Positions 41,756 to 44,671 of a stretch of DNA of 64,000 nucleotides are shown here, piece by piece. The position numbers and the translations under genes were made by a program. The stretch is from Escherichia coli (lineage in GTDB: Bacteria; Pseudomonadota; Gammaproteobacteria; Enterobacterales; Enterobacteriaceae). Below the pieces are notes generated by a model that was not told where the DNA came from, made no database searches, and saw only the letters and a list, made by a program, of their open reading frames with translations. Position 1 is the first letter of the stretch; every line of letters starts with the position of its first letter. Where the stretch lies: NCBI RefSeq assembly GCF_003991155.1, contig NZ_CP031293.1; one strand, given 5' to 3'.

Positions 41756-43444
41756 TTGCAATTTGACTACATCATTATTGGTGCCGGCTCAGCCGGCAAC
41801 GTTCTCGCTACCCGTCTGACTGAAGATCCGAACACAACCGTGCTGCTGCTTGAAGCAGGCGGCCCGGACTATCGCTTTGACTTCCGCACCCAGATGCCCG
41901 CTGCGCTGGCATTCCCGCTACAGGGTAAACGCTACAACTGGGCCTATGAAACGGAACCGGAACCGTTTATGAACAACCGTCGCATGGAGTGCGGACGCGG
42001 TAAGGGGCTTGGCGGGTCATCACTGATCAACGGCATGTGTTACATCCGTGGTAACGCGCTGGATCTCGATAACTGGGCGCAAGAACCCGGTCTGGAGAAC
42101 TGGAGCTACCTCGACTGTCTGCCCTACTATCGCAAGGCCGAGACTCGCGATGTGGGCGAGAACGATTACCACGGTGGCGATGGCCCGGTGAGCGTCACCA
42201 CCTCCAAACCCGGCGTCAATCCGCTGTTTGAAGCGATGATTGAAGCGGGCGTGCAGGCGGGCTACCCACGCACGGACGATCTCAACGGCTATCAGCAGGA
42301 AGGTTTTGGCCCGATGGATCGCACCGTCACGCCGCATGGCCGTCGCGCCAGCACCGCGCGTGGCTATCTCGCTCAGGCCAAATCGCGCCCTAACCTGACT
42401 ATTCGTACTCACGCCATGACCGATCACATCATTTTTGACAGCAAACGCGCGGTGGGCGTCGAGTGGCTGGAAGGCGACAGCACCATTCCGACCCGCGCGG
42501 CGGCGAATAAAGAAGTGCTGTTATGTGCAGGCGCGATTGCTTCACCGCAGATCCTGCAACGCTCCGGCGTCGGCAACGCTGAACTGCTGGCGGAGTTTGA
42601 TATTCCGCTGGTGCATGAATTACCTGGCGTCGGCGAAAATCTTCAGGATCACCTGGAGATGTATCTGCAATATGAGTGCAAAGAACCGGTTTCCCTCTAC
42701 CCTGCCCTGCAGTGGTGGAATCAGCCGAAAATCGGTGCGGAGTGGCTGTTTGGCGGCACCGGCGTTGGTGCCAGCAACCACTTTGAAGCAGGCGGATTTA
42801 TTCGCAGCCGTGAGGAATTTGCGTGGCCGAATATTCAGTACCATTTCCTGCCAGTGGCGATTAACTATAACGGCTCGAACGCAGTGAAAGAGCACGGCTT
42901 CCAGTGCCACGTCGGATCGATGCGCTCGCCAAGCCGTGGGCATGTGCGGATTAAATCCCGCGACCCGCACCAGCATCCAGCGATTCTGTTTAACTACATG
43001 TCGCACGAGCAGGACTGGCAGGAGTTCCGCGACGCAATTCGCATCACCCGGGAGATCATGCATCAACCGGCGCTGGATCAGTATCGTGGCCGCGAAATCA
43101 GCCCCGGTGTCGAATGCCAGACGGATGAGCAGCTCGATGAGTTTGTGCGTAATCACGCCGAAACCGCCTTCCACCCATGCGGTACGTGCAAAATGGGGTA
43201 CGACGAGATGTCCGTTGTGGATGGCGAAGGCCGCGTGCACGGGCTGGAAGGATTACGCGTAGTCGATGCGTCAATTATGCCGCAGATTATCACCGGCAAT
43301 CTGAACGCCACGACGATTATGATTGGCGAGAAAATGGCGGATATGATTCGCGGGAAGGATGCGTTGCCGAGGAGCACGGCGGGATATTATGTGGCAAATG
43401 GGATGCCGGTGAGAGCGAAAAAAATGAGTCGTGATGTGAACTGA
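41756..43444 (+). CDS. betA: choline dehydrogenase (GMC oxidoreductase)
   Basis: ORF 41711..43444 overlaps betB; likely start is TTG 41756, 5 nt after the RBS AGGAGG, giving (M)[17 protein letters not shown] (FAD-binding). Exact start is uncertain. Confidence 0.93.
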
Positions 43445-43975
43445 CTCAGGAACCTATCAGATTGAGAGTTACCGTTCTACTATGAGGACCGAATCCTTAT
43501 ATAAAACACTGAGGTAACTCTCATGCTTCATATCCAGTATTCATGATGCTGGCTTTTTGCTGATATTTAACCCGAACATTCCTGATACAGACTATTAATT
43601 CATTTATCTGCGGCAGATTTTATTTTCTGGATATATTATGAGTGAACAAATCAAACAGGATATCGATCTGATTGAGATTTTATTTTATCTGAAGAAAAAG
43701 GTAGATGAATACCAACAAAACTCTGGGCAGTAATAAACAGCATTCTGATAGAGAGTGCCTGTATAAAGCTGAAGTGACAATGACCGGGAAGGGAACCCGT
43801 TTTCAGGAATGGATGCCTGTCTTTTTCAATTTAAATATCCTGGCATTAGTAATGCCAGGATATTTACAGAAGAGCAGCATAACCATGACGGAACGGGGTT
43901 AAGTCAGGTTGTCCTAAACGCTATTTTCAACCTCGTATGCCTTCTTCAGGTTTATGTCCAGACTTCATATCTCTC

Positions 43976-44671
43976 TCAACAATCCTCAATAATCAGATAC
44001 ACCGCTTTCACCGGGCCATGAACTCCGACGACTTTGATAAGCTCAATATCCGCCGTTGAACTGGGGCCGCTAATGATGTTAATGCAGGAAGGCATTCGTT
44101 CACCGGCCTGCGCTTTCTGATGCAATTTTTCTGCGAGTTGCGCTACACGCGGCAGGATAGTGCTTTTACGCAGGATAAAAAGAGAAGATTCCGGGAGCAG
44201 GCTCAATGAACGCCCGCGCCCGGCGGCGGAAAAAAGAACCACGCCTCCCGATTCGGTTAAACCATATTCAGCATACACTACGCCAACTTTAGCCTGCTCT
44301 GCTTGTGATATGTTCTCAATACCTTTCGCCGGATCCCAAACAACGGCATTGCATTCCTGCTGCAAACGTTCGCTAATCCCCAATTCCTCCAGCCTCGTGT
44401 CACCGCTAATCACGATCGACTGATCTCCCAGCTCTTTACACAGACGTATTGCAGCTTCTGCCGCCTTCGCCTCGCTGGTCAGTTCACAGCGCGTCAACAT
44501 AACATCGCTGGCAAACTGGATAAACGCGTCACAGCGCTGCTGTTGGGTAAGTTGGGTAAGCCGCTCGTTAGCATAGTTGTTTAGCGGCGCATCTTCTGCT
44601 TGCGGTTCAAGTCGCAGCGGGCGACCCAGTGCCTGAGCAACGTTATTCAAAAATTCGCTCCGATTATCCAT
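43976..44671 (-). CDS. ykgG: LutC-like protein (DUF162)
   Basis: ORF 43976..44824; ATG at 44671 gives MDNRSEFLNNVAQALGRPL (231 aa); 8-nt overlap with the ykgF stop. Confidence 0.85.
   Translation of the reverse strand: MDNRSEFLNNVAQALGRPLRLEPQAEDAPLNNYANERLTQLTQQQRCDAFIQFASDVMLTRCELTSEAKAAEAAIRLCKELGDQSIVISGDTRLEELGISERLQQECNAVVWDPAKGIENISQAEQAKVGVVYAEYGLTESGGVVLFSAAGRGRSLSLLPESSLFILRKSTILPRVAQLAEKLHQKAQAGERMPSCINIISGPSSTADIELIKVVGVHGPVKAVYLIIEDC

Follow-up and report, generated by a model that had tools for sequence, protein, structure and literature searches.

The open reading frame and its locus

The gap between betA and ykgG in an Escherichia coli genome contains a short open reading frame, raising the question of whether it is a missed small protein gene, the remnant of a larger gene or noise. 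The stretch of DNA analysed here, referred to as the window, comprises 64,000 nucleotides of contig NZ_CP031293.1 (RefSeq assembly GCF_003991155.1), in which annotation places the choline dehydrogenase gene betA upstream of the gap (41756..43444, + strand) and ykgG, of the LutC family, downstream in convergent orientation (43976..44671, - strand). A sequence-only reading of the window had reported a 31-codon frame at this site, and its sequence and translation have been reproduced exactly: on the + strand, the frame opens with an ATG at 43638, comprises 31 sense codons and ends with a TAA at 43731-43733, with MSEQIKQDIDLIEILFYLKKKVDEYQQNSGQ as its product. The A+T-rich composition remarked upon in that reading was also borne out, the frame having a G+C content of 32%, compared with 38% for the gap and 51% for the whole window. 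The ribosome-binding site had been described as weak, and GGA at 43629-43631 is indeed the only Shine-Dalgarno-like element, with 6 nt separating it from the ATG. The region in which it lies (43610..43637, + strand) is, by its sequence, the native upstream region of ykgH, and is identical to that of K-12 from the GGA through the ATG.

Judged as a bare open reading frame, the 31-codon frame is within what chance would produce in an A+T-rich gap. Two ATG-initiated frames of at least 31 codons occur in the 531-bp gap, where 1000 shuffles gave 1.4 +/- 1.1 and 42% of the shuffles reached two, and further overlapping frames of 27-70 codons are present on both strands. The frame rises above chance because of its homology to both ends of ykgH.

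Identity with ykgH

The 31-codon frame is very probably ykgH carrying an in-frame internal deletion of 573 bp, an ordinary gene remnant and likely a non-functional relic. Alignments were made with the ykgH alleles of K-12, NMBU-W10C18, B2 and O111. Over nucleotides 1-63, the frame agrees with the 5' end of the gene at all but one position for K-12 (62 of 63) and at every position for the NMBU-W10C18 allele (63 of 63), and nucleotides 64-96 match the 3' end of the K-12 gene at all 33 positions. At the protein level, residues 1-21 are shared with K-12 YkgH at 20 of 21 positions and with NMBU-W10C18 at 21 of 21, while the last 10 residues are all identical. The K-12 product has 222 aa and reads MREQIKQDIDLIEILFYLKKK-IRV...LVKKM-VDEYQQNSGQ. 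According to these alignments, the remnant allele (43638..43733, + strand) consists of codons 1-21 joined in frame to codons 213-222 and the stop codon. The retained 5' part (43638..43700, + strand) corresponds to the predicted cytoplasmic N-terminal tail, with its KKK end just before the first transmembrane segment (TM1), and the retained 3' part (43701..43733, + strand), VDEYQQNSGQ followed by TAA, to the predicted cytoplasmic C-terminal tail after the second (TM2). The DNA missing from the window amounts to 669 - 96 = 573 bp, or 191 codons, and appears against the intact alleles as one clean gap within ykgH, with near-identical flanks.

Synteny and nucleotide identity both assign the frame to the ykgH locus, as it lies between betA and ykgG, is convergent with ykgG and is collinear with the intact alleles on both sides, in the spacer upstream and around the start codon as well as in the 3'UTR and the hairpin that separates ykgH from ykgG. 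The remnant has in common with K-12 ykgH (WP_001209100.1) the betA/ykgG locus, upstream region, start, stop, 3'UTR and terminator, but is missing the entire central domain and the hydrophobic helix on either side of it, which makes it a deletion allele or pseudogene. It does not encode a full-length YkgH (about 222 aa, with a central domain between two transmembrane segments), residues 22-212 being absent. The sequence-only reading had weighed a remnant of a missing gene against noise; the first alternative stands, as ykgH minus codons 22-212, and the second falls, as both ends of ykgH align.

The deletion junction and the ancestral state

The two retained parts of ykgH meet between 43700 and 43701, with the G at 43700 assignable to either side. 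The left breakpoint is CTGAAGAAAAAG|ATT and the right breakpoint GTCAAAAAAATG|GTAGAT, and the window reads CTGAAGAAAAAG|GTAGAT. In alleles with this breakpoint intact it has the form CTGAAGAAAAAG|NTT CGT, with codon 22 polymorphic in its first base: it is ATT in K-12, B2 and IAI39, TTT in NMBU-W10C18 and GTT in O111 12A. The breakpoints fall within two lysine-codon A-runs, AAGAAAAAG and AAAAAAATG, which border the two hydrophobic segments. On the nearest haplotype (IAI39, with ATT as codon 22) the perfect microhomology at the junction is 1 nt, beside the imperfect A-runs, and an ancestor with GTT as codon 22, as in O111, would raise it to 3 nt (GGT). A direct repeat as a strong cause of the deletion has been rejected, given 1 nt of perfect microhomology, or GGT only with the GTT allele.

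Comparison of the alleles indicates that the polarity of the change is settled, with the long form of ykgH as the ancestral one, because the full-length gene occurs in K-12, O157, O111 and B2 and full-length relatives share the same architecture. In the ancestor, betA and ykgG would thus have had a complete ykgH of 669 bp between them, and one deletion of 573 bp, possibly by slippage or illegitimate recombination between the A-runs, would have brought codon 213 directly after codon 21. As 573 is a multiple of three, the original start and stop codons are in a common frame, an outcome expected by chance in 1 of 3 cases.

Distribution and existing annotation

When the complete E. coli genomes, of which 5,426 were covered, were compared by megablast with the betA-ykgG gap, about 4,990 aligned to it in two separate segments. 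The typical examples listed have an aligned span of 1,104 bp, compared with 531 in the window, and the extra 573 bp are annotated as ykgH. A 120-bp probe across the junction is contiguous in 190 of the 5,426 genomes (3.5%). Carriers of the deletion include SMS-3-5, MRY15-117, MRY15-131 and many poultry, human and wastewater isolates. SMS-3-5 is taken here to belong to phylogroup F, and the allele offers a convenient marker for lineages of the SMS-3-5 type.

The remnant is already recorded in databases. In e1-39, SMS-3-5 and ECCNB12-2, RefSeq (PGAP) annotates a 22-codon pseudogene corresponding to 43638..43703 as "hypothetical protein, incomplete; missing C-terminus", and the exact 31-aa sequence has been deposited as a hypothetical protein (BAX14686.1, UniProt A0A2X5JH41) and occurs on at least 1000 contigs. 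The sole refinement made here to the "missing C-terminus" note is that the native C-terminal 10 codons and stop remain in frame, the value of which is mostly one of annotation hygiene.

The parent protein and what the deletion removed

In the literature, ykgH has the status of an uncharacterised predicted inner-membrane protein gene, and the locus has been mentioned in several metabolic-engineering and genome-engineering papers. A ykgH mutant from the Keio collection also appears among those listed in a screen for curli (PMC5745457). High-identity YkgH is nearly restricted to Escherichia and has few distant relatives; an exhaustive HMMER scan has revealed full-length relatives of 211-229 aa with 21-29% identity (21-31% at the widest) and the same architecture. 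By Kyte-Doolittle analysis, YkgH is hydrophobic over two segments (about 14-45 and 184-214), whereas in the 31-residue product no such segment is found, the best 19-residue window scoring 0.17. The topology of YkgH is predicted to have both termini in the cytoplasm, because of the KKK before TM1 and the KK after TM2 (positive-inside rule), and the central domain in the periplasm. The deletion would accordingly take out TM1, a periplasmic domain of about 145 residues and TM2, and any product would be a soluble peptide of 31 residues in which the cytoplasmic N-tail is joined to the cytoplasmic C-tail.

Profile comparisons and a structural model suggest that full-length YkgH may be a polysaccharide co-polymerase (PCP) in miniature, of the Wzz/Wzc-like kind. 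The K-12 protein scores 18.5 bits against Pfam Wzz (PF02706), below the gathering cut-off of 25.5, and weak matches to this family are present in 6 of 13 YkgH family members (best E = 8.5e-4). Against Pfam GNVR (PF13807), K-12 YkgH has E = 0.56, and 3 of the 13 members, all distant relatives, match with a best E of 5.1e-8. The YkgH family profile matches WzzB (6rbg) with E = 0.006. Single-sequence AlphaFold prediction was uninformative (pLDDT 51), and an alignment-based model (pLDDT 84; L001:1694-2362, alignment A1), which has two transmembrane segments, was used instead. When this model was searched against the PDB with Foldseek, the top 30 matches were all Wzc, WzzE and KpsE, with WzzB at rank 35 (probability up to 1.0, best E = 3e-4, query TM-score 0.45-0.51). 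YkgH appears to resemble the PCPs (Wzz/WzzE/FepE, Wzc, KpsE) in its N-terminal IDLxEL...K.K motif ahead of TM1, its modelled periplasmic alpha/beta-plus-helix domain, its predicted C-terminal TM2 and its basic tail. It differs from them in its length (222 aa, compared with 325-720) and much shorter periplasmic domain, in falling below the Pfam gathering threshold and in being located outside any polysaccharide gene cluster. Nothing of the PCP fold is left in the window remnant.

In the B2 strain MS20673, ykgH lies directly 3' of the autotransporter gene hyxB and not of betA. A YkgH homologue with 29% identity (P0094), on an unrelated contig (L022), is also located downstream of a large autotransporter gene. 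There are hints here of an association between ykgH and autotransporter genes.

Decay of ykgH in other strains

A number of other lesions have been detected in ykgH. In IAI39 the gene lacks 168 bp through another in-frame deletion (residues 43-98; L024:27300-27800), and is annotated as encoding the 166-aa hypothetical protein WP_000003127.1. This allele is similar to that of the window in being an in-frame internal deletion, on a local haplotype that differs from the window at 1 position from 43444 to 43978. It is distinct in that only 168 bp are lost, both transmembrane segments are kept and the breakpoints are others. In O111:H2 12A, ykgH has an internal stop codon, and in KMi006 it is interrupted by an IS2 insertion. 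Protein databases also hold many frameshifted or fusion YkgH fragments with breaks at residues 25-38, within TM1. These many independent lesions argue for a dispensable locus, and ykgH emerges as a frequently decaying, H-NS-associated, A+T-rich gene. As further observations, some of the fragments broken at residues 25-38 may read into inserted DNA, Z1323CEC0015 appears, from its match span, to have the 168-bp deletion of IAI39 too, and the ykgH match span in K-12 GM4792 is about 29 bp under expectation.

The ykgH 3'UTR as a possible RNA element

The intact ykgH 3'UTR occupies 43734..43872 (+ strand) in the window, and a candidate Hfq-associated, 3'UTR-derived small RNA has been mapped to it in RIL-seq studies (PMC5145812; PMC8175672). 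A perfect 16-bp hairpin, AAATATCCTGGCATTA GTA ATGCCAGGATATTT, identified by folding and by an inverted self-match, is located at 43832..43866 between the convergent ykgH and ykgG, without assignment to either strand, and is probably a bidirectional terminator. The 147-nt ykgH 3'UTR that includes this hairpin folds with -48.7 kcal/mol (z = -5.1).

These properties raise an alternative to the ordinary relic, in which the locus matters as RNA: the 3'UTR would be an Hfq-binding candidate small RNA, the transcript would have been cut to about 240 nt by the deletion and the 31-codon frame would be a passenger. Conservation and strong structure of the 3'UTR speak for this possibility, as does its high score as a small RNA candidate (PMC8175672). 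The target of the published northern probe, at 43779-43808, is intact and identical to K-12, with the reverse complement of the probe, ACAATGACCGGGAAGGGAACCCGTTTTCAG, present and conserved. Nonetheless, the candidate was not seen in K-12 by northern blotting with either of two probes (PMC8175672), and an Rfam search of 43300-44100 returned no family, only sub-threshold miRNA noise on the hairpin. In strain e1-39, moreover, an IS1 element is inserted in the 3'UTR at about 43795-43807, inside the probe region; the betA-ykgG gap of this strain is otherwise identical to the window and has the same deletion, so that an interruption of the 3'UTR is tolerated on the same haplotype. Retention of the 3'UTR also needs no selection, because the deletion ended upstream of it. 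Taken on both sides, a role of the locus as RNA is considered unlikely. Strains that carry the stub amount to natural ykgH nulls with the 3'UTR preserved, and could help to separate protein from RNA functions.

The remnant as a possible small protein

The stub may still be transcribed and translated at the low level set by the ykgH signals, because the upstream region, start, stop, 3'UTR and terminator are untouched. A second alternative to the relic holds that the resulting 31-residue peptide is a functional small protein, its fused cytoplasmic tails having been kept by selection. The frame is intact, with native start and stop, the allele is widespread (found in 190 complete genomes and on at least 1000 contigs) and none of the 6 variants in its 90% cluster departs from a length of 31 residues, although such clustering displays same-length variants only and leaves truncated forms invisible. 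Against this, Pfam and NCBIfam searches with the peptide gave no match, no hydrophobic segment is found and the rare variants include non-conservative changes (L11P, I12S, D8H). The sequences are not diverse enough for purifying selection to be shown or dN/dS to be run. The many other ways in which ykgH is broken elsewhere also weigh against selection for the peptide. A functional peptide is therefore very improbable, and the stub product is most likely without function.

Validated small proteins of E. coli, such as YkgR (33 aa, from the same chromosomal neighbourhood), are products of free-standing genes with conservation across strains, and a single pass through the membrane is common among them. 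The 31-residue product is of similar length and is likewise easily missed by length cut-offs, but its frame came about only when part of a larger gene was deleted, its occurrence is lineage-restricted and a hydrophobic helix is lacking. It is not a conserved, free-standing frame under constraint: the frame exists in the 190 complete genomes with the deletion, and the remaining genomes carry either the long gene or some other lesion at the site. In the papers searched, the one that brings together ykgH and ribosome profiling deals with the 3'UTR and not with the deletion allele. The suggestion made from the sequence that a small protein might have been missed here is thus not supported, since the frame owes its existence to the deletion, is confined to 3.5% of complete E. 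coli genomes, matches no family, retains no structural element of its parent and is flagged in RefSeq as a pseudogene fragment. What was called as a missed small frame turns out to be a pseudogene remnant.

The same junction on other haplotypes

An identical junction has also been detected with AAT or CGT as codon 2, on different flanks. Three contigs, L009-L011 (SRR21143366, SRR4241870 and ERR10986918), share one common haplotype, which has diverged by 2.2% from the window and by at least 2.1% from every one of the 5,426 complete E. coli genomes; having been seen in three sequencing runs, it looks real. Several contigs (among L012 and L014-L021), mostly from metagenomes, carry the junction with K-12-like or hyxB (B2-like) flanks. 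Among the complete genomes, those with the deletion have the window-type haplotype only, and queries with K-12-like and L009-like junctions found no complete genome that pairs those haplotypes with the deletion. The same junction on several flanks may reflect recurrence or spread of the allele, short-tract recombination or, for the metagenome contigs, chimeric assembly.

Recurrence or spread of the allele is not predicted by a purely neutral one-off deletion, and would speak against it. A further alternative, prompted by the junction on several haplotypes, regards the precise loss of codons 22-212 as the product of a hotspot or as a selected loss, in which case the transcript of about 240 nt might act as a dual-function small RNA and micro-peptide; this is a slight prospect at best. 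That the frame is a chance opening in an A+T-rich spacer, unrelated to any gene, has next to no probability, for, even with a frame count equal to the shuffle expectation and overlapping frames of similar size on both strands, it is refuted by alignments that match it base for base to both ends of ykgH at the syntenic position.

Other elements in the gap

In a genomic SELEX study, H-NS binding has been reported in the betA-ykgH spacer, and an RpoD promoter, GCGACA-16-TATATT, has been proposed for ykgH of K-12 (PMC3946193). The counterpart in the window is GCGGCA-16 nt-TATATT. The promoter assignment is doubtful because its -10 hexamer abuts the ATG, and a sigma-70 scan of the + strand upstream of the ATG revealed no convincing site, nor any better than the proposed hexamers.

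A 65-aa open reading frame (43705..43902, + strand) overlaps the 3' end of ykgH, the 3'UTR and the terminator hairpin. It appears in some RefSeq genomes as hypothetical protein WP_012311773.1 and in some GenBank records as a "universal stress protein". As a real gene it has been set aside as probably a spurious call, given the overlap with the 3' end of ykgH and the terminator, the inconsistent database names and the lack of a Pfam match.

A 10-bp inverted repeat (GAGAGTTACC / GGTAACTCTC, at 43464-43473 / 43513-43522) is located just past the betA stop codon, and is missing where hyxB takes the upstream place of betA. It is followed by a terminator-like hairpin and CTTTTTG (43534..43552, + strand), which lie 3' of betA and divide the bet operon from the ykgH remnant.
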